Both the position numbers and the translations under genes were made by a program. Below are positions 535-23,048 of a DNA stretch of 23,092 bases, piece by piece; within the stretch, counting starts at the first letter, position 1; each line of letters starts with the position of its first letter. Below the pieces are notes generated by a model. The model was not told where the DNA came from. It worked only from the letters and a program-made list of their open reading frames with translations, and made no database searches. The stretch lies in IMG/VR virus record IMGVR_UViG_2681813271_000002. One strand, 5' to 3'. The stretch is from a virus (lineage: Duplodnaviria > Heunggongvirae > Uroviricota > Caudoviricetes).

Positions 535-591
535 TGTAGTACCTTCCATGTGATATGAGGGGGCGTAGTCTGCACGATTATCTAAATTGCT

Positions 592-825: not shown

Positions 826-984
826 GAGGTTGCCCTGTATTCAGTGTCGCTGATTTGTATTGTCTGAAGTTGTTTTTACGTTAAGTTGATGCAGATCAAT
901 TAATACGATACCTGCGTCATAATTGATTATTTGACGTGGTTTGATGGCGTAGATGCACGTTGTGACATGTAGATGATAATTATT

Positions 985-1200: not shown

Positions 1201-1213
1201 CGTGGAATGAACA

Positions 1214-1733
1214 ATGGAAGTCAACAAAAAGCAGCTGGCTGACATTTTCGGTGCGAGTATCCGTACCATTCAGAACTGGCAGGAACAGGGAATGCCCGTT
1301 CTGCGAGGCGGTGGCAAGGGTAATGAGGTGCTTTATGACTCTGCCGCCGTTATAAGATGGTATGCCGAAAGGGATGCTGAAATTGAGAACGAAAAGCTGC
1401 GCCGGGAAGTTGAAGAACTGCGGCAGGCCAGCGAGACAGATCTCCAGCCAGGGACTATTGAGTACGAACGCCATCGACTTACGCGTGCGCAGGCCGACGC
1501 ACAGGAGCTGAAAAATGCCAGAGACTCCGCTGAAGTGGTGGAAACCGCATTCTGTACTTTCGTGCTGTCGCGGATCGCAGGTGAAATTGCCAGTATTCTC
1601 GACGGGATCCCCCTGTCGGTGCAGCGGCGTTTTCCGGAACTGGAAAACCGACATGTTGATTTCCTGAAACGGGATATCATCAAAGCCATGAACAAAGCAG
1701 CCGCGCTGGATGAACTGATACCGGGGTTGCTGA

Positions 1734-1759
<26 letters not shown>
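1214..1759 (+). CDS. nu1: terminase small subunit Nu1 (cosB-binding)
   Basis: 181-aa ORF MEVNKKQLADIFGASIRTIQNWQEQGMPVLRGGGKGNEVLYD…, essentially lambda gpNu1. Located directly downstream of cosB; its 3' end overlaps A. Confidence 0.97.
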
Positions 1760-5440
<3,681 letters not shown>

Positions 5441-5460
<20 letters not shown>

Positions 5461-6760
5461 TCTCCCGCATATTGCCAGCATGGCTTTTAATGAGCCGCTG
5501 ATGCTTGAACCCGCCTATGCGCGGGTTTTCTTTTGTGCGCTTGCAGGCCAGCTTGGGATCAGCTGCCTGACGGATGCAGTATCCGGCGACAGCCTGACTG
5601 CCGGAGAGGCACCCGCGGCGCTGGCGTTATCCGGTGATGATGACGGACCACGACAGGCCCGCAGTTATCAGGTAATGAACGGCATCGCCGTGCTGCCGGT
5701 GTCCGGCACGCTGGTCAGCCGGACGCGGGCGCTGCAGCCGTACTCGGGGATGACCGGTTACAACGGCATTATCGCCCGTCTGCAACAGGCTGCCAGCGAC
5801 CCGATGGTGGACGGCATTCTGCTCGATATGGACACACCGGGCGGAATGGTGGCGGGAGCATTTGACTGCGCTGACATCATCGCCCGTGTGCGTGACATAA
5901 AGCCGGTATGGGCGCTGGCCAATGACATGAACTGCAGCGCAGGTCAGCTGCTTGCCAGTGCCGCCTCCCGGCGTCTGGTCACGCAGACCGCCCGGACAGG
6001 CTCCATCGGCGTCATGATGGCTCACAGTAATTACGGCGCTGCACTGGAGAAACAGGGCGTGGAAATCACGCTGATTTACAGCGGCAGCCATAAGGTGGAT
6101 GGCAACCCCTACAGCCATCTACCGGATGATGTCCGGGAAACATTGCAGTCCCGGATGGATGCAACCCGCCGGATGTTTGCACAGAAGGTGTCGGCATATA
6201 CCGGCCTGTCCGTGCAGGCTGTGCTGGATACCGAGGCTGCAGTGTACAGCGGTCAGGAGGCCATTGATGCCGGACTGGCTGATGAACTTGTTAACAGTAC
6301 CGATGCGATCACCGTCATGCGTGATGCACTGGATGCACGTAAATCCCGTCTCTCAGGAGGGCGAATGACCAAAGAGACTCAATCAACAACTGTTTCAGCC
6401 ACTGCTTCGCAGGCTGACGTTACTGGCGTGGTGCAAGCGACGGAGGGCGAGAACGCCAGCGCGGCGCAGCCGGACGTGAACGCGCAGATCACCGCAGCGG
6501 TTGCGGCAGAAAACAGTCGCATTATGGGGATCCTCAACTGTGAGGAGGCTCACGGACGCGAAGAACAGGCACGCGTGCTGGCCGAAACCCCCGGTATGAC
6601 CGTGGAAACGGCCCGCCGTATTCTGGCCGCAGCACCACAGAGTGCACAGACGCGCAGTGACACTGCGCTGGATCGTCTGATGCAGGGGGCACCGGCACCG
6701 CTGGCTGCAGGTAACCCGGCATCTGATGCCGTTAACGATTTGCTGAACACACCAGTGTAA
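5441..6760 (+). CDS. C: capsid assembly protease C (ClpP/SppA-like serine protease), GTG start
   Basis: The track ORF 5306-6760 contains the lambda gpC sequence starting at VTAELRNLPHIASMAFNEPLMLEPAYARVFF…. GTG at 5441 is preceded by gaggagaag (Shine-Dalgarno) and gives 439 aa, the gpC length. Overlaps the end of B. Confidence 0.93.
6365..6760 (+). CDS. nu3: scaffolding protein Nu3, nested in-frame in the 3' third of C
   Basis: In-frame ATG at 6365 preceded by ggaggg; encodes MTKETQSTTVSATASQADVTG… (131 aa), sharing the C stop. This is the known lambda C/Nu3 nested arrangement. Confidence 0.85.
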   Translation: MTKETQSTTVSATASQADVTGVVQATEGENASAAQPDVNAQITAAVAAENSRIMGILNCEEAHGREEQARVLAETPGMTVETARRILAAAPQSAQTRSDTALDRLMQGAPAPLAAGNPASDAVNDLLNTPV

Positions 6761-6769
6761 GGGATGTTT

Positions 6770-7102
6770 ATGACGAGCAAAGAAACCTTTACCCATTACC
6801 AGCCGCTGGGCAATAGTGACCCGGCTCATACCGCAACCGCGCCCGGCGGATTGAGTGCGAAAGCGCCTGCAATGACCCCGCTGATGCTGGACACCTCCAC
6901 CCGTAAGCTGGTTGCGTGGGATGGCACCACCGACGGTGCTGCCGTTGGCATTCTTGCGGTTGCTGCTGACCAGACCAGCACCACACTGACGTTCTACAAG
7001 TCCGGCACGTTCCGTTATGAGGATGTGCTCTGGCCGGAGGCTGCCAGCGACGAGACGAAAAAACGGACCGTGTTTGCCGGAACGGCAATCAGCATCGTTT
7101 AA
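6770..7102 (+). CDS. D: head decoration protein D
   Basis: [110 protein letters not shown], i.e. lambda gpD. The track ORF starts two codons upstream at 6764 (MFM…); 6770 is chosen to match lambda. Confidence 0.95.
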
Positions 7103-7122
7103 CTTTACCCTTCATCACTAAA

Positions 7123-7146
7123 GGCCGCCTGTGCGGCTTTTTTTAC
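7123..7146 (+). terminator. GC stem-loop followed by a T-run between D and E (terminator-like or mRNA-stabilising hairpin)
   Basis: ggccgc-ctgt-gcggc followed by ttttttt (7138-7144), seen directly. Whether it terminates in vivo is unknown; lambda late transcripts are Q-antiterminated. Confidence 0.4.
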
Positions 7147-7157
7147 GGGATTTTTTT

Positions 7158-8183
7158 ATGTCGATGTACACAACCGCCCAGCTGCTGGCGGCAAATGAGC
7201 AGAAATTTAAGTTTGATCCGCTGTTTCTGCGTCTCTTTTTCCGTGAGAGCTATCCCTTCACTACGGAGAAAGTCTATCTCTCACAAATTCCGGGACTGGT
7301 AAACATGGCGCTGTACGTTTCGCCGATTGTTTCCGGTGAGGTTATCCGTTCCCGTGGCGGCTCCACCTCTGAATTTACGCCGGGATATGTCAAACCCAAG
7401 CATGAGGTGAATCCGCAGATGACCCTGCGTCGCCTGCCGGATGAAGATCCGCAGAATCTGGCGGACCCGGCTTACCGCCGCCGTCGCATCATCATGCAGA
7501 ACATGCGTGACGAAGAGCTGGCCATTGCTCAGGTCGAAGAGATGCAGGCAGTTTCTGCCGTGCTCAAGGGCAAATACACCATGACCGGTGAAGCCTTCGA
7601 TCCGGTTGAGGTGGATATGGGCCGCAGTGCGGCGAACAACATCACACAGTCCGGCGTCACGGAGTGGAGCAAGCGTGACAAGTCCACGTATGACCCGACC
7701 GACGATATCGAAGCCTACGCGCTGAACGCCAGCGGTGTGGTGAATATCATCGTGTTTGACCCGAAAGGCTGGGCGCTGTTCCGTTCCTTCAAAGCCGTCA
7801 AGGAGAAGCTGGATACCCGTCGCGGCTCTCATTCCGAGCTGGAGACAGCGGTAAAAGACCTGGGCAAAGCGGTGTCCTATAAGGGAATGTATGGCGATGT
7901 GGCCATCGTCGTGTATTCCGGACAGTACGTGGAAAACGGCGTCAAAAAGAACTTCCTGCCGGACAACACGATGGTGCTGGGGAACACTCAGGCTCGCGGT
8001 CTGCGCACCTATGGCTGCATTCAGGATGCGGACGCACAGCGCGAAGGCATTAACGCCTCTGCCCGTTACCCGAAAAACTGGGTGACCACCGGCGATCCGG
8101 CGCGTGAGTTCACCATGATTCAGTCAGCACCGCTGATGCTGCTGGCTGATCCTGATGAGTTCGTGTCCGTTCAACTGGCGTAA
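7158..8183 (+). CDS. E: major capsid protein E (HK97 fold)
   Basis: MSMYTTAQLLAANEQKFKFDPLFLRLFFRESYPFTTEKVYLSQIPGLVNMALYVSPIVSGEVIRSRGG…FVSVQLA, 341 aa as in lambda gpE. The track ORF begins upstream at 7131; the lambda-type start is ATG 7158. Confidence 0.96.
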   Translation: MSMYTTAQLLAANEQKFKFDPLFLRLFFRESYPFTTEKVYLSQIPGLVNMALYVSPIVSGEVIRSRGGSTSEFTPGYVKPKHEVNPQMTLRRLPDEDPQNLADPAYRRRRIIMQNMRDEELAIAQVEEMQAVSAVLKGKYTMTGEAFDPVEVDMGRSAANNITQSGVTEWSKRDKSTYDPTDDIEAYALNASGVVNIIVFDPKGWALFRSFKAVKEKLDTRRGSHSELETAVKDLGKAVSYKGMYGDVAIVVYSGQYVENGVKKNFLPDNTMVLGNTQARGLRTYGCIQDADAQREGINASARYPKNWVTTGDPAREFTMIQSAPLMLLADPDEFVSVQLA

Positions 8184-8224
8184 TCATGGCCCTTCGGGGC
8201 CATTTTCTCTCTGTGGAGGAGTTC

Positions 8225-8623
8225 ATGACGAAAGATGAACTGATTGCCCGTCTTCAGGAGCTGGGTGAGCAATTGAACCGCGATGTCAGTTTGACGGGAA
8301 CGAAAGAAGAACTGGCGCTTCGTGTGGCAGAGCTGGAAGAAGAGCTTGATGACACGGATGAAACTGCCGGTCAGGACACCCCTCTCAGCCGGGAAAATGT
8401 GCTGACCGGGCATGAAAATGAGGTGGTATCAGCGCAGCCGGATACCGTGATTCAGGATACGGCTGAACTGGTCACGGTCGTGGCACTGGTGACGCTGCAT
8501 ACTGATGCACTTCACGCCACGCGGGATAAACCTGTGGCATTTGTGCTGCCGGGAACGGCGTTTCGTGTCTCTGCCGGTGTGGCAGCCGAAATGACAGAGC
8601 GCGGCCTGGCCAGAATGCAATAA
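8225..8623 (+). CDS. FI: DNA packaging/head assembly protein FI
   Basis: MTKDELIARLQELGEQLNRDVSLTGTKEELALRVAELEEELDDTDETAGQDTPLSRENVLTGHENEVVSAQPDTVIQDTAELVTVVALV…ERGLARMQ. ATG at 8225 is preceded by ggagga. Confidence 0.93.
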   Translation: MTKDELIARLQELGEQLNRDVSLTGTKEELALRVAELEEELDDTDETAGQDTPLSRENVLTGHENEVVSAQPDTVIQDTAELVTVVALVTLHTDALHATRDKPVAFVLPGTAFRVSAGVAAEMTERGLARMQ

Positions 8624-8634
8624 CGGGAGGCGCT

Positions 8635-8988
8635 GTGGCTGATTTCGATAACCTGTTCGATGCTGCCATTGCCCGCGCCGATGAAACGATACGCGGGTAC
8701 ATGGGAACGTCAGCCACCATGACATCCGGTGAGCAGTCAGGTGCGGTGATACGTGGTGTTTTTGATGACCCTGAAAATATCAGCTATGCCGGACAGGGCG
8801 TGCGCGTTGAAGGCTCCAGCCCGTCCCTGTTTGTCCGGACTGATGAGGTGCGGCAGCTGCGGCGTGGAGACACGCTGACCATCGGTGAGGAAAATTTCTG
8901 GGTAGATCGGGTTTCGCCGGATGATGGCGGAAGTTGTCATCTCTGGCTTGGACGGGGCGTACCGCCTGCCGTTAACCGTCGCCGCTGA
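8635..8988 (+). CDS. FII: head-tail connector protein FII
   Basis: 117-aa ORF MADFDNLFDAAIARADETIRGYMGTSATMTSGEQSGAVIRGVFDDPENISYAGQGVRVEGSSPSLFVRTDEVRQLRRGDTLTIGEENFWVDRVSPDDGGSCHLWLGRGVPPAVNRRR, matching lambda gpFII. Confidence 0.95.
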   Translation: MADFDNLFDAAIARADETIRGYMGTSATMTSGEQSGAVIRGVFDDPENISYAGQGVRVEGSSPSLFVRTDEVRQLRRGDTLTIGEENFWVDRVSPDDGGSCHLWLGRGVPPAVNRRR

Positions 8989-8999
8989 AAGGGGGATGT

Positions 9000-9633
9000 A
9001 TGGCCATAAAAGNNNNNNNNNNNNNNNNNNNNNNNNNNNNNNNNNNNNNNNNNNNNNNNNNNCAGCCGTATCAGCAAAACGGCGGTGCCCGGTGCCGCCG
9101 CAATGGCCATTAACCGCGTTGCTTCATCCGCGATATCGCAGTCTGCGTCACAGGTTGCCCGTGAGACAAAGGTACGCCGGANNNNNNNNNNNNNNNNNNN
9201 NNNNNNNNNNNNNNNNNNNNNNNNNNNNNNNNNNNNNNNNNNNNNNNNNNNNNNNNNNNNNNNNNNNNNNNNNNNAGTTAACCGGGGGGATTTGCCCGTA
9301 ATCAAGCTGGGTAATGCGCGGGTTGTCCTGTCCCGCCGCAGGCGTCATAAAAAGGGGCAGCGTTCATCCCTGAAAGGTGGCGGCAGCGTGCTTGTGGTGG
9401 GTAACCGTCGTATTCCCGGCGCGTTTATTCAGCAACTGAAAAACGGCCGGTGGCATGTTATGCAGCGTGTGGCCGGGAAAAACCGTTACCCCATTGATGT
9501 GGTGAAAATCCCGATGGCGGTGCCGCTGACCACGGCGTTTAAACAGAATATTGAACGGATACGGCGTGAACGTCTTCCGAAAGAGCTGGGCTATGCGCTG
9601 CAGCATCAACTGAGAATGGTAATAAAGCGATGA
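9000..9633 (+). CDS. Z: tail completion protein Z; coding sequence interrupted by two N-runs, reading frame not continuous across the first
   Basis: ATG at 9000 (MAIK…). After the first N-run the sequence encodes …SRISKTAVPGAAAMAINRVASSAISQSASQVARETKVRR; after the second, VNRGDLPVIKLGNARVVLSRRRR…[11 protein letters not shown] and a stop at 9631-9633, which overlaps the U start (ATGA). All visible segments match lambda gpZ. The span is 55 nt longer than lambda Z (579 nt) and the frame shifts from 0 to 1 across the first gap. Confidence 0.85.
9013..9062. other. N-run (50 nt) inside Z
   Basis: Run of n; replaces about 25 nt of lambda-equivalent coding sequence. Confidence 1.
9182..9275. other. 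N-run (94 nt) inside Z
   Basis: Run of n; replaces about 65 nt of lambda-equivalent coding sequence. Confidence 1.
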
Positions 9634-10025
9634 AACATACTGAACTCCGTGCAGCCGTACTGGATGCACTGGAGAAGCATGACACCGGGGCGACGCTTTT
9701 TGATGGTCGCCCCGCTGTTTTTGATGAGGAAGATTTTCCGGCAATTGCCGTTTATCTCACCGGCGCTGAATACACGGGCGAAGAGCTGGACAGCGATACC
9801 TGGCAGGCGGAGCTGCATATTGAAGTTTTCCTGCCTGCTCAGGTGCCGGATTCAGAGCTGGATTCGTGGATGGAGTCCCGGATTTATCCGGTGATGAGCG
9901 ATATCCCGGCACTGTCAGATTTGATCACCAGTATGGTGGCCAGCGGCTATGACTACCGGCGCGACGATGATGCGGGCCTGTGGAGTTCAGCCGATCTGAC
10001 TTATGTCATTATCTATGAAATGTGA
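9630..10025 (+). CDS. U: tail terminator protein U
   Basis: 131-aa [75 protein letters not shown]…, matching lambda gpU. Confidence 0.95.
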
Positions 10026-10032
10026 GGACGCT

Positions 10033-10773
10033 ATGCCTGTACCAAATCCTACAATGCCGGTGAAAGGTGCCGGGACCACCCTGTGGGTTTATAAGGGGAG
10101 CGGTGACCCTTATGCGAACCCGCTTTCAGACGTTGACTGGTCGCGTCTGGCAAAAGTTAAAGACCTGACGCCCGGCGAACTGACCGCTGAGTCCTATGAC
10201 GACAGCTATCTCGATGATGAAGATGCAGACTGGACTGCGACCGGGCAGGGGCAGAAATCTGCCGGAGATACCAGCTTCACGCTGGCGTGGATGCCCGGAG
10301 AGCAGGGGCAGCAGGCGCTGCTGGCGTGGTTTAATGAAGGTGATACCCGTGCCTATAAAATCCGCTTCCCGAACGGCACGGTCGATGTGTTCCGTGGCTG
10401 GGTCAGCAGTATCGGTAAGGCGGTGACGGCGAAGGAGGTGATTACCCGCACGGTGAAGGTCACCAATGTGGGACGTCCGTCGATGGCAGAAGATCGCAGT
10501 ACGGTGACGGCGACGACCGGCATGACGGTGACACCCGCCAGTGCTTCCGTAGTGAAAGGGCAGAGCACCACGCTGACCGTGGCATTCCAGCCGGATGGCG
10601 CAACCGACAAGAGCTTCCGTGCGGTGTCTGCGGATAAAACAAAAGCCACCGTGTCGGTCAGTGGTATGACCATCACCGTGAAAGGTGTTGCTGCAGGCAA
10701 GGTCAACATTCCGGTCGTATCTGGTAATGGTGAGTTTGCTGCGGTTGCAGAAATCAACGTCACCGCCAGTTAA
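10033..10773 (+). CDS. V: major tail tube protein V (with C-terminal Ig-like domain)
   Basis: The track ORF 10003-10773 contains [36 protein letters not shown]…. ATG at 10033 is preceded by gagga and gives 246 aa, the lambda gpV length. Confidence 0.95.
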
Positions 10774-10788
10774 TCCGGAGAGTCAGCG

Positions 10789-11211
10789 ATGTTCCTGAAA
10801 ACCGAATCATTTGAACATAACGGTGTGACCGTCACGCTTTCTGAACTGTCAGCCCTGCAGCGTATTGAGCATCTCGACCTGATGAAACGGCAGGCAGAAC
10901 AGGCGGAGTCAGACAGCAACCGGAAGTTTACTGTGGAAGACGCCATCAGAACCGGCGCTTTTGTGGTTGCGATGTCCCTGTGGCATAACCATCCGAAGAA
11001 GACGCAGATGCCGTCCATGAATGAAGCCGTTAAACAGATTGAGCAGGAAGTGCTTACCACCTGGCCCACAGAGGCAATTTCTCATGCTGAAAACGTGGTG
11101 TACCGGCTGTCCGGTATGTATGAGTTTGTGGTGAATGATGCTCCTGAACAGGCAGAGGACGCCGGGCCTGCAGAGCCTGTTTCTGCGGGAAAGTGTTCGA
11201 CGGTGAGCTGA
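10789..11211 (+). CDS. G: tail assembly chaperone G
   Basis: 140-aa ORF MFLKTESFEHNGVTVTLSELSALQRIEHLDLMKRQAEQAESD…, matching lambda gpG. Ends shortly after the slippery heptamer. Confidence 0.95.
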   Translation: MFLKTESFEHNGVTVTLSELSALQRIEHLDLMKRQAEQAESDSNRKFTVEDAIRTGAFVVAMSLWHNHPKKTQMPSMNEAVKQIEQEVLTTWPTEAISHAENVVYRLSGMYEFVVNDAPEQAEDAGPAEPVSAGKCSTVS

Positions 11212-11627
11212 GTTTTGCCCTGAAACTGGCGCGTGAGATGGGGCGACCCGACTGGCGCGCCATGCTTGCCGGGATGTCATCCACGGAGTATGCCGACTGG
11301 CACCGCTTTTACAGTACCCATTATTTTCATGATGTTCTGCTGGATATGCACTTTTCCGGGCTGACGTACACCGTGCTCAGCCTGTTTTTCAGCGATCCGG
11401 AGATGCATCCGCTGGATTTCAGTCTGCTGAACCGGCGCGAGGCTGACGAAGAGCCTGAAGATGATGTGCTGATGCAGAAAGCGGCAGGGCTTGCCGGAGG
11501 TGTCCGCTTTGGCCCGGACGGGAATGAAGTTATCCCCGCTTCCCCGGATGTGGCGGACATGACGGAGGATGACGTAATGCTGATGACAGTATCAGAAGGG
11601 ATCGCAGGAGGAGTCCGGTATGGCTGA
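10789..11627 (+). CDS. G-T: tail assembly chaperone GT, made by a programmed -1 ribosomal frameshift from G into the T frame
   Basis: The -1 frame downstream of the slippery site is open to 11627 and encodes the lambda T sequence (…FDGELSFALKLAREMGRPDWRAMLAGMSSTEYADWHRFYSTHYFHDVLLD…). The G/GT frameshift is established for lambda-like phages. Confidence 0.85.
11187..11193 (+). other. -1 programmed frameshift slippery heptamer G GGA AAG (G to GT)
   Basis: gggaaag at 11187-11193 in X XXY YYZ phase relative to the G frame (codons gga 11188-11190, aag 11191-11193), the same heptamer used in lambda. Confidence 0.85.
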
Positions 11628-14181
11628 ACCGGTAGGCGATCTGGTCGTTGATTTGAGTCTGGATGCGGCCAGATTTGACGAGCAGATGGCCAGAGTCAGG
11701 CGTCATTTTTCCGGTACGGAAAGTGATGCGAAAAAAACAGCGGCAGTCGTTGAACAGTCGCTGAGCCGACAGGCGCTGGCTGCACAGAAAGCGGGGATTT
11801 CCGTCGGGCAGTATAAAGCCGCCATGCGTATGCTGCCTGCACAGTTCAACGACGTGGCCACGCAGCTTGCAGGGGGGCAGAATCCCTGGCTGATCCTGCT
11901 GCAACAGGGTGGTCAGGTTAAGGACTCCTTCGGCGGGATGATCCCCATGTTCAGGGGGCTTGCCGGCGCGATCACCCTGCCGATGGTGGGGGCCACCTCG
12001 CTGGCGGTGGCGACCGGTGCGCTGGCGTATGCCTGGTATCAGGGCAACTCAACCCTGTCCGATTTCAACAAAACGCTGGTCCTTTCCGGTAATCAGGCGG
12101 GACTGACGGCAGATCGTATGCTGGTCCTGTCCAGAGCCGGGCAGGCGGCAGGGCTGACGTTTAACCAGACCAGCGAGTCACTCAGCGCACTGGTTAAGGC
12201 GGGGGTAAGCGGTGAGGCTCAGATTGCGTCCATCAGCCAGAGTGTGGCGCGTTTCTCCTCTGCATCCGGCGTGGAGGTGGACAAGGTCGCTGAAGCCTTC
12301 GGGAAGCTGACCACAGACCCGACGTCGGGGCTGACGGCGATGGCACGCCAGTTCCATAACGTGACGGCGGAGCAGATTGCGTATGTTGCTCAGTTGCAGC
12401 GTTCCGGCGATGAAGCCGGGGCATTGCAGGCGGCGAACGAGGCCGCAACGAAAGGGTTTGATGACCAGACCCGCCGCCTGAAAGAGAACATGGGCACGCT
12501 GGAGACCTGGGCAGACAGGACTGCACGTGCATTCAAATCCATGTGGGATGCGGTGCTGGATATTGGTCGTCCTGATACCGCGCAGGAGATGCTGATTAAG
12601 GCAGAGGCTGCGTTTAAGAAAGCAGACGACATCTGGAATCTGCGCAAGGATGATTATTTCGTTAACGATGAAGCACGGGCGCGTTACTGGGATGATCGTG
12701 AAAAAAAACGCCTGGAGCGGGATGCAGCCCAAAAGAGGGTAGATCAACAGCGTCAACAGGACAAAAATGCGCAGCAGCAGAGCGATACCGAAGCGTCACG
12801 GCTGAAATATACCGAAGAGGCGCAGAAGGCTTACGAACGGCTGCAGACGCCGCTGGAGAAATATACCGCCCGTCAGGAAGAACTGAACAAGGCACTGAAA
12901 GACGGAAAAATCCTGCAGGCAGATTACAACACGCTGATGGCGGCGGCGAAAAAGGATTATGAAGCGACGCTGAAAAAGCCGAAACAGTCCGGCGTGAAGG
13001 TGTATGCGGGCGATCGTCAGGAAGACAGTGCTCATGCGGCCCTGCTGACGCTTCAGGCAGAACTCCGGACGCTGGAGAAGCATGCCGGAGCGAATGAGAA
13101 AATCAGCCAGCAGCGCCGGGATTTGTGGAAGGCAGAAAGTCAGTTCGCGGTACTGGAGGAGGCGGCACAACGTCGCCAGCTGTCCGCACAGGAGAAATCC
13201 CTGCTGGCGCATAAAGACGAGACGCTGGAGTACAAACGCCAGCTGGCTGCACTTGGTGACAAGGTTACGTATCAGGAGCACCTGAATGCGCTGGCGCAGC
13301 AGGCGGATAAATTCGCACAGCAGCAACGGGCAAAACGGGCAGCCATTGATGCGAAAAACCGGGGGCTGACTGACCGGCAGGCAGCGCGGGAAGCCACGGA
13401 ACAGCGCCTGAAGGAACAGTATGGCGATAATCCTCTGGCGCTGAATAACGTCATGTCAGAGCAGAAAAAGACCTGGGCGGCTGAAGACCAGCTTCGCGGG
13501 AGCTGGATGGCAGGCCTGAAGTCCGGCTGGAGTGAGTGGGAAGAGAGCGCCACGGACAGTATGTCACAGGTTAAAAGTGCAGCCACGCAGACCTTTGATG
13601 GTATTGCACAGAATATGGCGGCGATGCTGACCGGCAGTGAACAGAACTGGCGCAGCTTCACCCGCTCCGTGCTGTCCATGATGACAGAAATTCTGCTTAA
13701 GCAGGCAATGGTGGGGATTGTCGGGAGTATCGGCAGCGCCATTGGCGGGGCTGTTGGTGGCGGCGCATCCGCGTCAGGTGGTACAGCCATTCAGGCCGCT
13801 GCGGCGAAATTCCATTTTGCAACCGGGGGATTTACGGGAACCGGCGGCAAATATGAGCCAGCGGGGATTGTTCACCGTGGTGAATTTGTCTTCACGAAGG
13901 AGGCAACCAGCCGGATTGGCGTGGGGAATCTCTACCGGCTGATGCGCGGCTATGCGGAAGGTGGTTATGTGGGCGGTGCCGGAAGTCCGGCGCAGATGCG
14001 GCGGGCTGAAGGCATTAATTTTAATCAGAACAATCACGTGGTGATTCAGAACGACGGTACGAATGGTCTGCCAGGTCCACAGATGATGAAGGCCGTGTAT
14101 GACATGGCCCGCAAGGGGGCACAGGATGAACTCCGGCTGCAGTTGCGTGATGGCGGTATGTTATCAGGGAGCGGTGGATGA
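11620..14181 (+). CDS. H: tail tape measure protein H
   Basis: 853-aa ORF (the lambda gpH length) with a long helical/charged central region and a Gly-rich C-terminal segment. Position between GT and M; start overlaps the end of T. Confidence 0.95.
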   Translation: MAEPVGDLVVDLSLDAARFDEQMARVRRHFSGTESDAKKTAAVVEQSLSRQALAAQKAGISVGQYKAAMRMLPAQFNDVATQLAGGQNPWLILLQQGGQVKDSFGGMIPMFRGLAGAITLPMVGATSLAVATGALAYAWYQGNSTLSDFNKTLVLSGNQAGLTADRMLVLSRAGQAAGLTFNQTSESLSALVKAGVSGEAQIASISQSVARFSSASGVEVDKVAEAFGKLTTDPTSGLTAMARQFHNVTAEQIAYVAQLQRSGDEAGALQAANEAATKGFDDQTRRLKENMGTLETWADRTARAFKSMWDAVLDIGRPDTAQEMLIKAEAAFKKADDIWNLRKDDYFVNDEARARYWDDREKKRLERDAAQKRVDQQRQQDKNAQQQSDTEASRLKYTEEAQKAYERLQTPLEKYTARQEELNKALKDGKILQADYNTLMAAAKKDYEATLKKPKQSGVKVYAGDRQEDSAHAALLTLQAELRTLEKHAGANEKISQQRRDLWKAESQFAVLEEAAQRRQLSAQEKSLLAHKDETLEYKRQLAALGDKVTYQEHLNALAQQADKFAQQQRAKRAAIDAKNRGLTDRQAAREATEQRLKEQYGDNPLALNNVMSEQKKTWAAEDQLRGSWMAGLKSGWSEWEESATDSMSQVKSAATQTFDGIAQNMAAMLTGSEQNWRSFTRSVLSMMTEILLKQAMVGIVGSIGSAIGGAVGGGASASGGTAIQAAAAKFHFATGGFTGTGGKYEPAGIVHRGEFVFTKEATSRIGVGNLYRLMRGYAEGGYVGGAGSPAQMRRAEGINFNQNNHVVIQNDGTNGLPGPQMMKAVYDMARKGAQDELRLQLRDGGMLSGSGG

Positions 14182-14507
14182 AAACCTTTCGCTGGAAAGT
14201 GAAGCCGGATATGGAGGTGAACTCGCAGCCATCGGTGCGTGAAGTGCGTTTTGGTGACGGGTACTCACAGCGTATGGCGGCAGGGCTGAATGCTGACCTG
14301 AAAACATACAGGGTGACGCTTTCCGTGACCCGGGAGGAGGCCCGGCATCTGGAAGCGTTCCTGGCAGAGCACGGTGGCTGGAAGGCATTTTTGTGGAAGC
14401 CACCCTATGCATACCGGCAGATAAAGGTGACCTGTGCCGGGTGGTCTGCGCGGGTCGGGATGTTGCGCGTTGAGTTCAGCGCGGAGTTTAAGCAGGTGGT
14501 GAACTGA
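14178..14507 (+). CDS. M: tail tip protein M, copy 1 (diverged)
   Basis: 109-aa ORF MKTFRWKVKPDMEVNSQPSVREVRFGDGYSQRMAAGLNADLKTYRVTLSV…. ATGA overlap with the H stop. About 82% identical to the visible part of copy 2. Confidence 0.9.
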   Translation: MKTFRWKVKPDMEVNSQPSVREVRFGDGYSQRMAAGLNADLKTYRVTLSVTREEARHLEAFLAEHGGWKAFLWKPPYAYRQIKVTCAGWSARVGMLRVEFSAEFKQVVN

Positions 14508-15205
14508 TGCAGGATATTCGCGAAGAAAGTCTGAACGAGTCGGTTAAGTCAGAGCAGTCACCGCGGGTGGTACTCTGGGAAATCGACCTGACGGTACAGG
14601 GTGGTGAGCGGTATTTTTTCTGTAATGAGCTGAATGAAAAAGGGGAGCCGGTCACCTGGCAGGGGCGTAAGTATGAGGCATACCCGATTGACGGCAGCGG
14701 CTTTGAGATGAACGGCCGGGGCAGCAGTGCCAGACCGTCGCTGACGGTGTCCAATCTGTTCGGTCTGGTCACCGGGATGGCGGAAGACCTGCAGAGTCTG
14801 GTGGGGGCCACGGTGGTCCGCCGCCGGGTGTATGCCCGTTTTCTGGATGCGGTGAATTTCGTTGCGGGCAATCCGGAGGCGGACCCGGAGCAGGAGCTGA
14901 GTGACCGCTGGGTGGTGGAGCAGATGTCGCAGCTGACAGCCATGACGGCCTCGTTTGTGCTGGCTACACCGACCGAGACGGACGGGGCGCTGTTTCCCGG
15001 TCGCATCATGCTGGCGAACACCTGTATGTGGGATTACCGGGGAGATGAATGCGGGTATAACGGTCCTGCGGTGGCGGATGAGTTCGACAACCCCACCACG
15101 GATATCCGTAAGGACAGATGCAGCAAGTGCATGCGCGGGTGTGAACTGCGCAGGAATGTCGGCAATTTTGGCGGTTTCCTTTCCATTAATAAACTTTCGC
15201 AGTAA
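14507..15205 (+). CDS. L: tail tip assembly protein L, copy 1 (diverged; C-terminal Cys cluster conserved)
   Basis: 232-aa ORF; TGATG overlap with M. Cysteines in …NTCMW…DECGY…RCSKCMRGCE… are conserved with copy 2. About 77% identical to copy 2 by hand count. Confidence 0.9.
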   Translation: MQDIREESLNESVKSEQSPRVVLWEIDLTVQGGERYFFCNELNEKGEPVTWQGRKYEAYPIDGSGFEMNGRGSSARPSLTVSNLFGLVTGMAEDLQSLVGATVVRRRVYARFLDAVNFVAGNPEADPEQELSDRWVVEQMSQLTAMTASFVLATPTETDGALFPGRIMLANTCMWDYRGDECGYNGPAVADEFDNPTTDIRKDRCSKCMRGCELRRNVGNFGGFLSINKLSQ

Positions 15206-15215
15206 ATCCCGGTTT

Positions 15216-15959
15216 ATGACACAGACTGAATCAGCGATTCTGGCACATGCCCGGCGGTGTGCGCCTGCGGAGTCGTGCGGCTTCGTGATAAGCACGCCGG
15301 AGGGGGAGCGGTATATCCCTTGTGTGAATATTTCCGCAGAGCCGGAGGCGTATTTTCGTATCGCACCGGAAGACTGGCTGCGGGCAGAGATGCAGGGGGA
15401 GATTGTGGCACTGGTCCACAGTCATCCCGGTGGGCTGCCCTGGCTGAGCGAGGCTGACCGGCGGTTGCAGATAAAAAGCGCACTGCCCTGGTGGTTGGTC
15501 TGCCGGGGTGACATTCACAAATTCCGCTGTGTGCCACATCTGACAGGACGGCGCTTTGAGCACGGGGTGACGGACTGTTACACGCTGTTCCGGGATGCTT
15601 ATCATCTGGCGGGGACTGAAATGCCGGATTTTCATCGCGAGGATGACTGGTGGCGCAACGGTCAGAACCTTTACCTGGACAATATGGCGGTCACCGGCTT
15701 TTACCGGGTGCCCCTGTCCTCTGCACAGGCGGGCGATATTCTGCTGTGCTGCTTTGGTGCTTCGGTACCGAACCATGCCGCCATTTACTGCGGCAACGGT
15801 GAGCTGCTTCACCATCTGCCTGAACAACTGAGTAAACGGGAGAGGTATTCCGAAAAATGGCAACGACGAACGCATTCAGTCTGGCGTCACCGCCACTGGC
15901 ACGCATCTGCCTTCACGGGGATTTACAACGATTTGGCCGCCGCCTCAGCCTGTATGTGA
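15216..15959 (+). CDS. K: tail tip assembly protein K, copy 1 (JAMM/MPN domain plus NlpC/P60 domain)
   Basis: The track ORF 14955-15959 starts inside L; the K-homologous sequence begins at ATG 15216 (MTQTESAILAHARRCAPAESCGF…), giving 247 aa. Contains HSHPGGLPWLSEAD (HxH-x7-S-x2-D JAMM motif) and a downstream Cys/His pair typical of NlpC/P60. About 88% identical to copy 2. Confidence 0.88.
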   Translation: MTQTESAILAHARRCAPAESCGFVISTPEGERYIPCVNISAEPEAYFRIAPEDWLRAEMQGEIVALVHSHPGGLPWLSEADRRLQIKSALPWWLVCRGDIHKFRCVPHLTGRRFEHGVTDCYTLFRDAYHLAGTEMPDFHREDDWWRNGQNLYLDNMAVTGFYRVPLSSAQAGDILLCCFGASVPNHAAIYCGNGELLHHLPEQLSKRERYSEKWQRRTHSVWRHRHWHASAFTGIYNDLAAASACM

Positions 15960-16416
15960 ACACGGCAGCGGAAGCCATTCGCGCCCTGTCGATGCAGATG
16001 CCGGGCTTTCGCCGTCAGATGAACGAAGGCTGGTACCAGATACGTATTGCCGGTTATGACACGGCACCGGAGGCGGTGTACGCCCGTCTTCACGAACAGC
16101 TGGGTGAGGGAACGGTCATCCACATTGTGCCGCGACTGGCCGGGGCCGGAAAGGGTGGACTGCAGATTGTGCTGGGGGCGGCAGCCATCGTGGGCTCTTT
16201 CTTCACTGCCGGGGCATCAATGGCGTTATGGGGTTCAGCCCTGGCAGCCGGTGGTTTTTCTGCCACCACGATGCTGTTTTCACTTGGAGCCAGCATGATT
16301 CTGGGCGGTGTGGCCCAGATGCTGGCCCCGAAGGCAAAAACACCGGATTACCGCGCAACGGATAACGGCAGACAGAACACGTACTTTTCCTCACTGGATA
16401 ACATGATTGCCCAGGG
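15857..16416 (+). CDS. I: tail tip assembly protein I, copy 1 (diverged); 3' end lost in N-run
   Basis: Starts at 15857 in a different frame overlapping the K 3' end by 103 nt, exactly as in copy 2. Encodes MATTNAFSLASPPLARICLHGDLQRFGRR…FSLGASMILGGVAQMLAPKAKTP… (first 187 aa visible). About 68% identical to copy 2. Confidence 0.85.
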
Positions 16417-17050
16417 NNNNNNNNNNNNNNNNNNNNNNNNNNNNNNNNNNNNNNNNNNNNNNNNNNNNNNNNNNNNNNNNNNNNNNNNNNNNNNNNNNNN
16501 NNNNNNNNNNNNNNNNNNNNNNNNNNNNNNNNNNNNNNNNNNNNNNNNNNNNNNNNNNNNNNNNNNNNNNNNNNNNNNNNNNNNNNNNNNNNNNNNNNNN
16601 NNNNNNNNNNNNNNNNNNNNNNNNNNNNNNNNNNNNNNNNNNNNNNNNNNNNNNNNNNNNNNNNNNNNNNNNNNNNNNNNNNNNNNNNNNNNNNNNNNNN
16701 NNNNNNNNNNNNNNNNNNNNNNNNNNNNNNNNNNNNNNNNNNNNNNNNNNNNNNNNNNNNNNNNNNNNNNNNNNNNNNNNNNNNNNNNNNNNNNNNNNNN
16801 NNNNNNNNNNNNNNNNNNNNNNNNNNNNNNNNNNNNNNNNNNNNNNNNNNNNNNNNNNNNNNNNNNNNNNNNNNNNNNNNNNNNNNNNNNNNNNNNNNNN
16901 NNNNNNNNNNNNNNNNNNNNNNNNNNNNNNNNNNNNNNNNNNNNNNNNNNNNNNNNNNNNNNNNNNNNNNNNNNNNNNNNNNNNNNNNNNNNNNNNNNNN
17001 NNNNNNNNNNNNNNNNNNNNNNNNNNNNNNNNNNNNNNNNNNNNNNNNNN
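16417..17050. other. N-run (634 nt) at the junction between the two M-L-K-I copies
   Basis: Run of n. Must contain the last ~36 codons of I copy 1 and the first ~20 codons of M copy 2; if the length is real, more than 400 nt of content is unknown. Confidence 1.
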
Positions 17051-17322
17051 TAAGAAAGGTGCGCTTTGGTGATGGCTATTCCCAGCGAGCGCCTGCCGGG
17101 CTGAATGCCAACCTGAAAACGTACAGCGTGACGCTTTCTGTCCCCCGTGAGGAGGCCATGGTACTGGAGTCGTTTCTGGAAGAGCACGGGGGCTGGAAAG
17201 CCTTTCTGTGGACGCCGCCTTATGAGTGGCGGCAGATAAAGGTGACCTGCGCAAAATGGTCGTCGCGGGTCAGTATGCTGCGTGTTGAGTTCAGCGCAGA
17301 GTTTGAACAGGTGGTGAACTGA
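17051..17322 (+). CDS. M: tail tip protein M, copy 2 (lambda-type); 5' end lost in N-run
   Basis: In-frame from the gap edge: (R)KVRFGDGYSQRAPAGLNANLKTYSVTLSVPREEAMVLESFLEEHGGWKAFLWTPPYEWRQIKVTCAKWSSRVSMLRVEFSAEFEQVVN, i.e. the C-terminal ~89 residues of an M homologue. Truncated by the gap, not a pseudogene call. Confidence 0.85.
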
Positions 17323-18020
17323 TGCAGGATATCCGGCAGGAAACACTGAATGAATGCACCCGTGCGGAGCAGTCGGCCAGCGTGGTGCTCTGGGAAATCG
17401 ATCTGACAGAGGTCGGTGGAGAACGTTATTTTTTCTGTAATGAGCAGAACGAAAAAGGTGAGCCGGTCACCTGGCAGGGGCGACAGTATCAGCCGTATCC
17501 CATTCAGGGGAGTGGTTTTGAACTGAATGGCAAAGGCACCAGTACGCGCCCCACGCTGATGGTTTCTAACCTGTACGGTATGGTCACCGGGATGGCGGAA
17601 GATCTACAGAGTCTGGTCGGCGGAACGGTGGTCCGGCGTAAGGTTTACGCCCGTTTTCTGGATGCGGTGAACTTCGTCAACGGAAACAGTGACGCCGATC
17701 CGGAGCAGGAGGTGATCAGCCGCTGGCGCATTGAGCAGTGCAGCGAACTGAGCGCGGTGAGTGCCTCTTTTGTACTGTCCACGCCGACGGAAACAGATGG
17801 CGCTGTTTTTCCGGGACGTATCATGCTGGCCAACACCTGCACCTGGACCTATCGCGGCGATGAGTGCGGTTATCACGGTCCGGCGGTCGCGGATGAATAT
17901 GACCAGCCAACGTCCGACATCACGAAGGATAAATGCAGCAAATGCCTGAGTGGCTGTAAGTTTCGCAATAACGTCGGCAACTTTGGCGGCTTCCTTTCCA
18001 TTAACAAACTTTCGCAGTAA
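17322..18020 (+). CDS. L: tail tip assembly protein L, copy 2
   Basis: 232-aa ORF MQDIRQETLNECTRAEQSASVVLWEIDLTEVGGERYFFCNEQNEKGEPVTWQGRQYQPYPIQGSGFELNGKG…; TGATG overlap with M copy 2; same Cys cluster as copy 1. Confidence 0.93.
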   Translation: MQDIRQETLNECTRAEQSASVVLWEIDLTEVGGERYFFCNEQNEKGEPVTWQGRQYQPYPIQGSGFELNGKGTSTRPTLMVSNLYGMVTGMAEDLQSLVGGTVVRRKVYARFLDAVNFVNGNSDADPEQEVISRWRIEQCSELSAVSASFVLSTPTETDGAVFPGRIMLANTCTWTYRGDECGYHGPAVADEYDQPTSDITKDKCSKCLSGCKFRNNVGNFGGFLSINKLSQ

Positions 18021-18025
18021 ATCCC

Positions 18026-18769
18026 ATGACAGAGACAGAATCAGCGATTCTGGCGCACGCCCGGCGATGTGCTCCAGCGGAGTCGTGCGGCTTCGTGGTA
18101 AGAACGCCGGAGGGGGAAAGATATTTCCCCTGCGTGAATATCTCCGGTGAGCCGGAGGCGTATTTCCGTATGTCGCCGGAAGACTGGCTGCAGGCAGAGA
18201 TGCAGGGTGAGATTGTGGCACTGGTCCACAGCCACCCCGGTGGTCTGCCCTGGCTGAGTGAGGCCGACCGGCGGCTGCAGGTGCAGAGTGATTTGCCGTG
18301 GTGGCTGGTCTGCCGGGGGGCGATTCACAAGTTCCGCTGTGTGCCACATCTTACCGGGCGGCGCTTTGAGCACGGGGTGACGGACTGTTACACGCTGTTC
18401 CGGGATGCTTACCATCTGGCGGGGATTGAGATGCCGGATTTTCATCGTGAGGATGACTGGTGGCGTCACGGTCAGAATCTCTATCTGGATAATCTGGAGG
18501 CCACAGGGCTGTATCAGGTGCCGTTGTCAGCGGCGCAGCCGGGCGATGTGCTGCTGTGCTGTTTTGGTTCATCGGTGCCGAATCATGCCGCCATTTACTG
18601 TGGTGACGGCGAGCTGCTGCACCATATTCCTGAACAACTGAGCAAACGAGAGAGGTATACCGACAAATGGCAGCGACGCACACACTCCCTCTGGCGTCAC
18701 CGGGCATGGCACGCATCTGCCTTTACGGGGATTTGCAACGATTTGGCCGCCGCATCGACCTTCGTGTGA
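18026..18769 (+). CDS. K: tail tip assembly protein K, copy 2 (JAMM/MPN plus NlpC/P60)
   Basis: 247-aa ORF MTETESAILAHARRCAPAESCGFVVRTPEGERYFPCVNISGEPEAYFRMSPEDW…HSHPGGLPWLSEAD…. The internal Met49 corresponds to the classically annotated 199-aa lambda K start. Confidence 0.92.
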   Translation: MTETESAILAHARRCAPAESCGFVVRTPEGERYFPCVNISGEPEAYFRMSPEDWLQAEMQGEIVALVHSHPGGLPWLSEADRRLQVQSDLPWWLVCRGAIHKFRCVPHLTGRRFEHGVTDCYTLFRDAYHLAGIEMPDFHREDDWWRHGQNLYLDNLEATGLYQVPLSAAQPGDVLLCCFGSSVPNHAAIYCGDGELLHHIPEQLSKRERYTDKWQRRTHSLWRHRAWHASAFTGICNDLAAASTFV

Positions 18770-19338
18770 AAACGGGTGCCGAAGCCATCCGGGCGATGGC
18801 CACACAGCTCCCTGCGTTTCGTCAGAAGCTGAGCGACGGCTGGTATCAGGTGCGTATTGCCGGGCAGGATGTTAGCACGTCCGGATTAACGGCGCAGTTA
18901 CATGAGGCTCTGCCTGACGGCGCTGTGATTCATATTGTTCCCAGAGTCGCCGGGGCCAAGTCAGGTGGTGTATTCCAGATTGTCCTGGGAGCAGCCGCCA
19001 TTGCCGGATCATTCTTTACCGCCGGAGCCACCCTTGCAGCATGGGGGGCTGCCATTGGTGCCGGTGGTATGACCGGCATTCTGTTTTCTCTCGGTGCCAG
19101 TATGGTGCTCGGCGGTGTGGCTCAGATGCTGGCACCGAAAGCCAGAACTCCCCGCACACAGACAACGGATAACGGTAAGCAGAACATCTATTTCTCCTCA
19201 CTGGATAACATGGTTGCCCAGGGCAATGTTATGCCTGTTCTGTATGGTGAAATGCGCGTGGGGTCACGTGTGGTATCTCAGGAGATCAGCACGGCAGACG
19301 AAGGGGACGGTGGTCAGGTTGTGGTGATTGGTCGCTGA
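18667..19338 (+). CDS. I: tail tip assembly protein I, copy 2
   Basis: 223-aa ORF MAATHTLPLASPGMARICLYGDLQRFGRRIDLRVKTGAEAIRAMATQLPAFRQKLSDGWYQVRIAG…GQVVVIGR, matching lambda gpI. Overlaps the K 3' end in another frame. Confidence 0.93.
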   Translation: MAATHTLPLASPGMARICLYGDLQRFGRRIDLRVKTGAEAIRAMATQLPAFRQKLSDGWYQVRIAGQDVSTSGLTAQLHEALPDGAVIHIVPRVAGAKSGGVFQIVLGAAAIAGSFFTAGATLAAWGAAIGAGGMTGILFSLGASMVLGGVAQMLAPKARTPRTQTTDNGKQNIYFSSLDNMVAQGNVMPVLYGEMRVGSRVVSQEISTADEGDGGQVVVIGR

Positions 19339-19398
19339 TGCAAAATGTTTTATGTGAAATCGCCTCCGGGCGGTTTTATCGTTTATGGAGCATGACGA

Positions 19399-22300
19399 AT
19401 GGGTAAAGGCAGCAGTAAGGGGCATACCCCGCGCGAAGCGAAGGACAACCTGAAGTCCACGCAGCTGCTGAGTGTGATCGATGCCATCAGCGAAGGGCCG
19501 GTTGAAGGTCCGGTGGATGGATTAAAAAGCGTGCTGCTGAACAGTACGCCGGTGCTGGACAGTGAGGGGAATACCAACATCTCCGGCGTCACGGTGGTGT
19601 TCCGGGCAGGTGAGCAGGAGCAGTCACCGCCGGAGGGATTTGAATCCTCCGGCTCCGAGACGGTGCTGGGTACGGAAGTGAAATATGACACGCCGATCAC
19701 CCGGACCATCACGTCGGCAAACATTGACCGACTGCGTTTTACCTTCGGTGTACAGGCACTGGTGGAAACCACCTCAAAGGGAGACAGGAATCCGTCTGAA
19801 GTTCGCCTGCTGGTTCAGATACAGCGTAACGGTGGCTGGGTGACGGAAAAAGACATCACCATTAAGGGCAAAACCACCTCGCAGTATCTGGCCTCGGTGG
19901 TGGTGGATAACCTGCCGCCGCGCCCGTTTAATATCCGGATGCGCAGAATGACGCCGGACAGCACCACAGACCAGCTGCAGAACAAAACGCTCTGGTCGTC
20001 ATACACCGAAATCATCGATGTGAAACAGTGCTACCCGAACACGGCACTGGTCGGCGTACAGGTGGATTCGGAGCAGTTCGGCAGCCAGCAGGTGAGCCGT
20101 AATTATCATCTTCGCGGGCGCATTCTGCAGGTGCCGTCGAACTATAATCCGCAGACGCGGCAATACAGCGGTATCTGGGACGGAACGTTAAAACCGGCAT
20201 ACAGCAACAACATGGCCTGGTGTCTGTGGGATATGCTGACCCATCCGCGCTATGGCATGGGGAAACGTCTTGGTGCGGCAGATGTGGATAAATGGGCGCT
20301 GTATGTCATCGGCCAGTACTGTGACCAGTCGGTGCCGGACGGCTTTGGCAGCACGGAGCCGCGCATCACCTGTAATGCCTGGCTGACCACACAGCGCAAG
20401 GCGTGGGATGTGCTCAGTGATTTCTGCTCGGCGATGCGCTGTATGCCGGTATGGAACGGGCAGACGCTGACGTTCGTGCAGGACCGACAGTCGGATAAGG
20501 TGTGGGCCTATAACCGCAGTAATGTGGTGATGCCGGATGATGGCGCGCCGTTCCGCTACAGTTTCAGCGCCCTGAAAGACCGCCATAATGCCGTTGAGGT
20601 GAACTGGATTGACCCGGATAACGGCTGGGAGACGGCGACAGAGCTTGTGGAGGATACGCAGGCCATTGTCCGTTACGGTCGTAACGTCACGAAGATGGAT
20701 GCCTTTGGCTGTACCAGCCGGGGGCAGGCACACCGCGCCGGGCTGTGGCTGATTAAAACGGAACTGCTGGAGACGCAGACCGTGGATTTCAGCGTGGGTG
20801 CTGAAGGGCTTCGTCATGTACCGGGCGATGTCATTGAAATCTGCGATGATGACTATGCCGGTATCCGCACCGGCGGGCGCGTGCTGGCGGTGAACAGCCA
20901 GACCCGGACGCTGACGCTCGACCGTGAAATCACGCTGCCATCCTCCGGCACCACGCTGATAAGCCTGGTTGACGGGCAGGGGAATCCGGTCAGCGTGGAG
21001 GTCCAGTCCGTCACCGACGGCGTGAAGGTAAAAGTGAGCCGTGTTCCTGACGGTGTTGCTGAATACAGCGTGTGGGGGCTGAAGCTGCCGACGCTGCACC
21101 AGCGATTGTTCCGCTGCGTGAGTATCCGTGAGAACGACGACGGCACGTATGCCATCACCGCCGTGCAGCATGTGCCGGAAAAAGAAGCCATCGTGGATAA
21201 CGGGGCGCACTTTGACGGCGACCAGAGCGGCACGGTGAATGGTGTCACGCCGCCAGCGGTGCAGCACCTGACTGCCGAAGTCACCGCAGACAGCGGGGAA
21301 TATCAGGTGCTGGCGCGCTGGGACACGCCGAAGGTGGTGAAGGGCGTGAGCTTCCTGCTCCGTCTGACCGTAACAGCGGATGACGGCAGTGAGCGGCTGG
21401 TCAGCACGGCCCGGACGACGGAAACCACTTACCGCTTCACACAACTGGCGCTGGGGAACTACAGGCTGACAGTCCGGGCAGTAAATGCGTGGGGGCAGCA
21501 GGGCGATCCGGCGTCGGTATCGTTCCGGATTGCCGCACCGGCAGCGCTGTCGCGGATTGAGCTGACGCCGGGCTATTTTCAGATAACCGCCACGCCGCAT
21601 CTTGCGGTTTATGATCCGACGGTACAGTTTGAGTTCTGGTTCTCGGAAAAGCGGATTGCGGATATCAGGCAGGTTGAAACCACAGCACGCTATCTTGGCA
21701 CGGCGCTGTACTGGATAGCCGCCAGTATCAATATCAAACCGGGCCATGATTATTACTTTTATATCCGCAGTGTGAACACCGTTGGCAAATCGGCATTCGT
21801 GGAGGCTGTTGGTCAGCCGAGTGATGATGCATCCGGTTATCTGGATTTTTTCAAAGGCGAGATAGGGAAAACCCATCTGGCTCAGGAGCTGTGGACGCAG
21901 ATTGATAACGGTCAGCTTGCGCCTGACCTGGCTGAAATCAGGACGTCCATTACGGATGTCAGCAATGAAATCACGCAGACCGTCAATAAGAAACTGGAAG
22001 ACCAGAGTGCGGCAATTCAGCAGATACAGAAGGTTCAGGTTGATACAAATAATAATCTGAACAGCATGTGGGCTGTGAAGCTGCAACAGATGAAGGACGG
22101 ACGCCTTTATATTGCGGGTATCGGTGCCGGTATTGAGAATACGCCAGCAGGAATGCAGAGTCAGGTGCTGCTGGCGGCAGACAGGATTGCGATGATTAAT
22201 CCTGCGAATGGCAACACAAAGCCGATGTTTGTTGGTCAGGGCGATCAGATATTCATGAACGACGTGTTCCTGAAACGCCTGACGGCTCCCACCATTACCA

Positions 22301-22779
22301 GCGGCGGTAATCCTCCGGCATTTTCCCTGACACCGGACGGAAAACTGACCGCTAAAAATGCAGATATCAGTGGCAGTGTGAATGCGAACGCCGGGACGCT
22401 CAACAATGTCACAATTAATGAGAACTGTCAGATTAAGGGGAAACTGTCAGCCAACCAGATTGAAGGCGATATAGTCAAAACAGTGGGTAAGGCTTTTCCG
22501 CGGGACTCCCGGGCACCGGAGCGGTGGCCATCAGGGACCATTACCGTCAGGATTTATGACGATCAGCCTTTTGACAGGCAAATTGTTATTCCGGCGGTGG
22601 CATTCAGCGGCGCTAAACATGAGCGGGAGAATAACGATATTTATTCGTCATGCCGCCTGATAGTACGGAAAAACGGTGCTGAAATTTATAACCGTACCGC
22701 GCTGGATAATACGCTGATTTACAGTGGTGTTATTGATATGCCAGCTGGTCGCGGCCACATGACGCTGGAGTTTTCGGTG
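19399..22779 (+). CDS. J: tail tip central fibre / host-specificity protein J; 3' end lost in N-run; C-terminal region diverged from lambda
   Basis: ATG at 19399 preceded by ggag. Translation [105 protein letters not shown]… is open for 1127 codons to the gap. It is absent from the ORF track only because no stop is reached before the N-run. Lambda-like over about the first 900 aa; the last ~200 visible residues differ from recalled lambda J. Confidence 0.93.
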
Positions 22780-23048
22780 NNNNNNNNNNNNNNNNNNNNN
22801 NNNNNNNNNNNNNNNNNNNNNNNNNNNNNNNNNNNNNNNNNNNNNNNNNNNNNNNNNNNNNNNNNNNNNNNNNNNNNNNNNNNNNNNNNNNNNNNNNNNN
22901 NNNNNNNNNNNNNNNNNNNNNNNNNNNNNNNNNNNNNNNNNNNNNNNNNNNNNNNNNNNNNNNNNNNNNNNNNNNNNNNNNNNNNNNNNNNNNNNNNNNN
23001 NNNNNNNNNNNNNNNNNNNNNNNNNNNNNNNNNNNNNNNNNNNNNNNN
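22780..23048. other. N-run (269 nt) spanning the J 3' end, the J-lom intergenic region and the lom 5' end
   Basis: Run of n. Confidence 1.

Follow-up and report, generated by a model that had tools for sequence, protein, structure and literature searches.

Organization of the locus

The window, by which we mean the whole 23,092-nt stretch of DNA analysed here, is the complete draft record CXCM01000047.1 (assembly GCA_001256555.1). It covers the late genes of a lambda-like prophage, in the order Nu1, A, W, B, C, D, E, FI, FII, Z, U, V, G, T, H and M-L-K-I, followed by a run of N and then by M'-L'-K'-I' and J. Five N-runs interrupt it, at positions 181-232, 9013-9062, 9182-9275, 16417-17050 and 22780-23048. 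The fourth, which separates the two M-L-K-I sets, was described in the initial annotation as a 634-nt gap, and direct reading of the window indeed gives 634 consecutive N. The features that bear on this gap are listed below, A and B denoting the two prophage lineages to which the stretches are compared in the next section.

9013-9062 and 9182-9275, no strand: two N-runs in gene Z, used to gauge the accuracy of gap lengths
11620-14181, plus strand: tape-measure gene H, 853 aa (Pfam TMP_2 and Tape_meas_lam_C), the last ~20 codons turning from B type to A type
14104-14117, plus strand: first switch block, 14 nt, ATGGCCCGCAAGGG, the sole stretch common to A and B between dense type-specific differences
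14178-14507, plus strand: gene M (A branch)
14507-15205, plus strand: gene L (A branch)
15216-15959, plus strand: gene K (A branch)
15956-16416, plus strand: gene I (A branch), 5' 461 nt only, left flank of the gap; Pfam Lambda_tail_I (PF06805)
16417-17050, no strand: run of 634 N that separates the A and B branches
17051-17322, plus strand: gene M' (B branch) lacking its first 58 nt, 3' 272 nt left, right flank of the gap; Pfam Phage_min_tail
17322-18020, plus strand: gene L' (B branch)
18026-18769, plus strand: gene K' (B branch)
18766-19338, plus strand: gene I' (B branch)
19339-19398: spacer of 60 nt between I' and J
19399-22779, plus strand: gene J', of B type to 22055 and of A type from 22056, cut off by the next N-run
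22018-22055, plus strand: second switch block, 38 nt, identical in A and B, inside J

The run is an unbroken series of N in the deposited record, with a gene truncated at either edge. Stored gene calls of CXCM01000047.1 end at 16416 and resume at 17051, and for this reason we consider that the N belong to the record as deposited and are no later mask. Both M-L-K-I sets carry the same Pfam families in the same order, namely Phage_min_tail (PF05939), Phage_tail_L (PF05100), NLPC_P60/Prok-JAB (PF14464/PF00877) and Lambda_tail_I (PF06805). They share this gene order and these families with the H-M-L-K-I-J region of phage lambda, and the 60-nt spacer of the second copy is likewise of lambda length; phages 434, 21 and HK630 are ~89% identical to window positions 14000-20500. 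In contrast, lambda and all of the matching phage records (271/271) have a single M-L-K-I set, whereas the window shows two diverged sets, one on each side of the gap.

In loci that match the left flank exactly, gene I measures 582 nt, which leaves 121 nt missing at the gap; the shortfall would be 115 nt if I' served as the yardstick instead. Once these 121 nt and the 58 nt missing from M' are subtracted from 634, a length of 455 nt is left without explanation, in agreement with the surplus of more than 400 nt that had been extrapolated earlier.

A 632-aa open reading frame lies on the minus strand at 20188-22086, antisense to J. The gene calls of the public record include it, no Pfam family matches it, and in all likelihood it is a spurious call within J.

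Two prophage lineages in one scaffold

Compared with its relatives, the scaffold reads B / A / N634 / B / A / N269. The B stretches (1-14117 and 17051-22055) are near-identical to genomes of the type of L006: positions 9276-14117 differ from L006 at 4 nt, and positions 17051-22055 differ from L006 and from the near-identical B loci L009, L012 and L015 at two, 18894 and 19187. The A stretches (14104-16416 and 22056-22779) follow other genomes, without a single mismatch between 14104-16416 and L021 or between 22018-22779 and L018. L021 is record CXDC01000070.1 of assembly GCA_001258035.1, a neighbour of the window in both WGS prefix and assembly number. The M-L-K-I genes of the A branch are also ~100% identical to those of E. 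coli ML35.

With an offset of 2815 nt, the two M-L-K-I modules share 76-87% identity with each other, while each matches its own separate lineage at 100% (A) or 99.9% (B). Copies arising by tandem duplication should resemble each other more closely than they resemble other loci, and here the reverse is found. The initial annotation had spoken of duplicated modules; judged from these identities, the two modules are pieces of two prophages and not a duplication. The same annotation had allowed that the flanks might prove to belong to different loci, and it is this outcome that the comparison favours, the left flank being of A type (100% to L021) and the right flank of B type (99.9% to L006).

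Each lineage has a regular arrangement of its own. The normal order in B is H-M'-L'-K'-I'-J; 5,306 blocks of the collection contain the exact L' protein, with this order in all of the ten places listed (10/10). The equivalents of window positions 14117 and 17051 are just 118 nt apart in B, a distance that comprises the final 64 nt of H and the initial 58 nt of M', with an overlap of 4 nt between the two. In A (L021 and L018), an 857-aa H of its own precedes the module, and downstream come the remaining 121 nt of I, a spacer of 343 nt and J. The exact K protein was found in 3,820 blocks. Exact look-ups of L' and K returned the two parental lineages, and no second assembly of the isolate was found among the matches listed. 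In every gap-free genome examined, A and B occupy separate loci.

Frameshifts break gene J of two draft A-lineage assemblies (L018/L021 7666-11135) into products of 67, 547 and 513-519 aa, which suggests that prophage A is defective in both.

Switch points between the lineages

The window passes from B to A twice without any intervening N. The first passage takes place within the 14-nt block ATGGCCCGCAAGGG, near the 3' end of H: the window agrees with B (L006) as far as 14117 and with A (L021) from 14104 on, with 0 mismatches to 16416. The second lies within the 38-nt block inside J, bounded by the last mismatch to A (L018) at 22017 and the first mismatch to B (L006) at 22056. Both mosaic products, H and J', are without a match in public genomes. 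The exact H protein occurs in no contig other than its own record in an index of 153 billion genes, and a 121-nt query over the H junction reached a best identity of 91.7% in 5,426 complete E. coli genomes. A 70-nt string over the same junction gave 0 matches in IMG/VR and JGI metagenomes. For the segment 17051-22779, which spans the switch in J, no complete E. coli genome exceeded 96.6%.

A shorter, 40-nt string over the H junction matched four IMG/VR contigs; these are A-type variants that share one base, and a chimera was ruled out for them. A scan of genome_contigs with a degenerate junction pattern returned 31 matches, mainly lambda-like sequence in unrelated species, and none of them came from the CXCM01 assembly although the H junction of the window satisfies the pattern.

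The length of the first block restricts what may have produced it. Simple graph mis-threading fails for this switch because 14 nt is shorter than any plausible k-mer, and therefore either a merge of short overlaps or a real recombinant H is needed. That H is a genuine recombinant between two co-resident prophages is plausible, since E. coli S88 carries a comparable natural mosaic: S88 aligns in one piece with window positions 9276-16416 at 96.6% and combines a B-like H and tail shaft with A-like M-L-K-I.

The lambda-type pattern for the 3' end of H also matched assemblies of Pseudomonas, Shewanella, Neobacillus, Vibrio, Bradyrhizobium and others (L027, L030, L040, L049 and more). These matches in unrelated species comprise three contigs of ~48.4-48.5 kb and many short fragments, several of them named with a coverage near 1x, and look like contamination of public genomes by phage lambda control DNA.

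Accuracy of the N-run lengths

Two of the shorter N-runs lie in gene Z, between flanks that are 100% identical to the complete or gap-free relatives L006, L009, L012 and L015, and can thus be read against a known length. The 50 N at 9013-9062 stand for 25 nt (an excess of 25) and the 94 N at 9182-9275 stand for 64 nt (an excess of 30), and these excesses in sum break the reading frame. The same comparison gives 211 nt in five relatives for the 269 N at 22780-23048 (an excess of 58) and 34 nt in relatives for the 52 N at 181-232 (an excess of 18). All four of the other N-runs (4/4) hence overestimate the homologous length, by 18-58 nt. On this comparative evidence, calibrated on the four shorter runs, the N-run lengths in the record are demonstrably inexact and unreliable. 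The surplus had been calculated on the premise that the run length is accurate; because every other N-run is too long relative to near-identical relatives, that premise is unsafe, and the last of the possibilities raised at the time, an arbitrary gap size, is the one favoured.

Gene Z itself is split by its two N-runs, with a 119-nt island between them, and is represented in public gene calls by two short Minor_tail_Z proteins.

Search for the I-to-M' adjacency and a similar pattern in L021

A chimeric query joining the last 400 nt before the gap to the first 400 nt after it was searched for places where both halves fell within 900 nt of each other. The adjacency of A-type I and B-type M' was found in none of 5,426 complete E. 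coli genomes and in none of 50,697 phage records. The flanks of the gap come from different lineages whose adjacency is present in no gap-free genome of these two collections. Prophages of the E. coli S88/ML35 type have an M-L-K-I set 100% identical to the left flank, and that of S88 also joins a B-like shaft to an A-like tip; they differ from the window in that I leads to the spacer and then to J, never to a second M. A literature search on the accession numbers found nothing relevant.

A comparable arrangement exists in the neighbouring assembly. L021 follows A over positions 1-9787, with 2 mismatches to L018, and turns to B inside a 42-nt block common to A and B (9788-9829). Past 9829 come 2 kb of B-type sequence (the J C-terminus, lom and the start of stf) and then 11 N, after which L021 is back on A exactly at the first base of the same 42-nt block, and 852 nt then follow with a single mismatch. 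A B-type branch (J C-terminus, lom and stf') and an A-type J C-terminus branch thus stand in series at 9788-11893, while L020, a complete genome of the A lineage, shows the normal J-lom-stf order. A real junction falling exactly at the start of the block would be a remarkable coincidence, and on that ground we read L021 as a textbook artefact in which two branches of an assembly fork, from the same two prophages, are written in series; it is hard to read otherwise. L021 also shows that A-type and B-type sequence co-occur in one assembly.

The I-J spacer of A-type prophages

The gap would contain the spacer that separates I from J in A-type prophages if the sequence beyond the left flank is that of its relatives:

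L021 7323-7665, L004 13262-13604 and L002 7539-7881: I-J spacer of A-type relatives, 343 nt

This spacer is AT-rich and conserved, and it is present in 1,662 of the 5,426 complete E. coli genomes. For the left module, the ~60 nt that lie between I and J in lambda, used as a yardstick in the initial annotation, are therefore not applicable. In A-type relatives the spacer holds no annotated gene and gives no Rfam match above the gathering score. Its minus strand carries a near-consensus sigma-70 promoter (TTCACA-16-TATAAT, 11 of 12 positions) and, ~95 nt downstream of it, a GC-rich hairpin and then a U-run (fold z = -2.05). By these sequence signals the spacer may encode a small RNA, and we regard it as a candidate. 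Its identification with the prophage anti-sRNA locus AgvB/AsxR was considered and rejected, as AgvB and AsxR sit at the PR' moron site; a preprint on the Pas sRNA does not mention tail genes.

Origin of the gap and of the second M-L-K-I set

Four direct observations, namely the B/A/gap/B/A mosaic, the inexact lengths of the N-runs, an arrangement seen nowhere else and the similar pattern in the neighbouring assembly, lead us to infer that the join across the N-run is probably false and that a software step was responsible for it. In this interpretation, to which we assign a probability of about 0.78, the 634 N are a gap of estimated size in a short-read draft scaffold, and both the duplicated module and the missing ~400 nt are products of assembly. 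The strain would carry two related lambda-like prophages, A and B, between which the assembler would cross wherever short identical blocks occur. After a fork at the end of H, the two right-hand branches would have been set end to end, first the M-L-K-I of A and then the M'-L'-K'-I'-J' of B. The true continuation of the left flank would then be the 3' end of A's I (121 nt), the 343-nt spacer and A's J, at another locus, and the true upstream sequence of the right flank would be the 118 nt formed by the end of B's H and the start of M'; the figure 634 would have no biological meaning. Of the initial annotation, the description and the arithmetic are correct; the biological reading would not stand, the evidence favouring an arbitrary gap size.

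The locus resembles the misjoins that repeats induce in short-read scaffolds in its estimated N lengths, in its switches between A and B within short identical blocks, in a second branch that starts mid-gene after an N-run, and in the recurrence of the pattern in L021. False joins of this sort have been warned of: in the widely used pipeline that combines Velvet, SSPACE and GapFiller, greedy steps "can lead to false joins", joins are taken down to 5 read pairs, and test genomes contained 4-10 misassemblies each, with fragments of 300-500 nt (Page et al. 2016, PMC5320598). Our guess, from the style of the accession, is that the record came from a pipeline of this type; a 634-nt gap would strain it because of that fragment length. 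The locus departs from such misjoins in the shortness of its first switch block and in its large positive gap estimate. We could derive a positive A-to-B estimate of ~600 nt from no specific algorithmic step. Graph mis-threading, bubble popping, short-overlap merging and runaway gap filling were each considered, and none fits all the details, in particular the +634 gap and the 14-nt switch. In addition, the B branch resumes 118 nt past the fork, whereas L021 resumes at the fork itself, and the other joins of the scaffold are all collinear with relatives (4/4), which indicates that the scaffolder was usually right.

Several of these points speak for a real, private rearrangement in which 2.3-2.8 kb of A (the end of H together with M, L, K and I, and possibly the spacer before J) lies inside B just before M'. 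We consider such a rearrangement unlikely. In its favour are the B/A junction at 14104-14117, which is contiguous, free of N and too short for a k-mer artefact, and the collinearity of the other joins, and the S88 mosaic is a natural precedent for a B-like H followed by A-like M-L-K-I. The gap could then be closed in two ways. In the first, ~582 nt would be filled by the 3' end of I (121 nt), the A spacer (343 nt) and the 118 nt of B with the final 64 nt of its H and the opening 58 nt of M'; compared with 634 N this is an excess of 52 nt, within the +18 to +58 of the other gaps. In the second, the closure would measure ~185 nt and pass through an 11-nt microhomology, CCCGTGATGAA, which is found 69 nt beyond 16416 in the I gene of A and, in the same frame, 2 nt beyond the switch block in B. 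Only ~0.004 matches of this sort are expected in the small target zone. Both the 582-nt sum and the 11-mer are nevertheless post hoc, and the arrangement occurs in 0 of the 5,426 E. coli genomes and 0 of the 50,697 phage records, just as the hypothetical junction string produced by the I/H microhomology was not found in IMG/VR or JGI metagenomes. Such a rearrangement would moreover require illegitimate recombination at its right junction and would have to share its scaffold with a second private B-to-A switch, in J, and the like serial pattern of L021 is hard to read other than as an artefact.

The two sites of CCCGTGATGAA are L021 7270-7280, in the 3' end of A's I (equivalent to window position 16485), and L006 5614-5624, in B's H, the shared frame reading R-D-E. 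The match could be due to chance, could be a cause of mis-joining or could mark a real microhomology junction. Likewise improbable is a single prophage with tandem, diverged cassettes, A-type M-L-K-I and then B-type M'-L'-K'-I'-J, behind a tape-measure protein with a chimeric C-terminus. If real, the tandem would have been made by recombination of co-resident prophages; at its right junction, either I would be fused to H through the 11-nt in-frame microhomology or the 343-nt spacer would have been retained.

That the gap hides a 5' remnant of J, a small accessory gene or another insert of ~400 nt, as the surplus had first suggested, we regard as very improbable. The 455 nt follow by arithmetic if 634 is taken literally, and the bases concerned are absent from the record; but N-run lengths are inexact here, the join is itself doubtful, and the A-type spacer, which carries neither an annotated gene nor an Rfam family above threshold, would cover most of the surplus. 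Because the spacer would fill most of the 455 nt, no hidden gene is required even if the join is real. Almost no credence is due to an in-place mask over known bases with 634 as the exact length, since, although the description of genome_contigs says that some stretches are masked as N, the stored gene calls of the NCBI record already break at the edges of the run, the other N-runs keep neither length nor frame relative to relatives with 100% identical flanks, and CXCM01 is not among the 31 matches of the genome_contigs scan.

Significance

The main value of this locus is one of caution, as false duplications will emerge from scans that take such scaffolds for real gene order. A true join would represent a one-off structural variant with a modest bearing on how lambdoid prophages recombine. 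A possible by-product of the analysis is the 343-nt I-J spacer of A-type prophages, which is widespread and unannotated.
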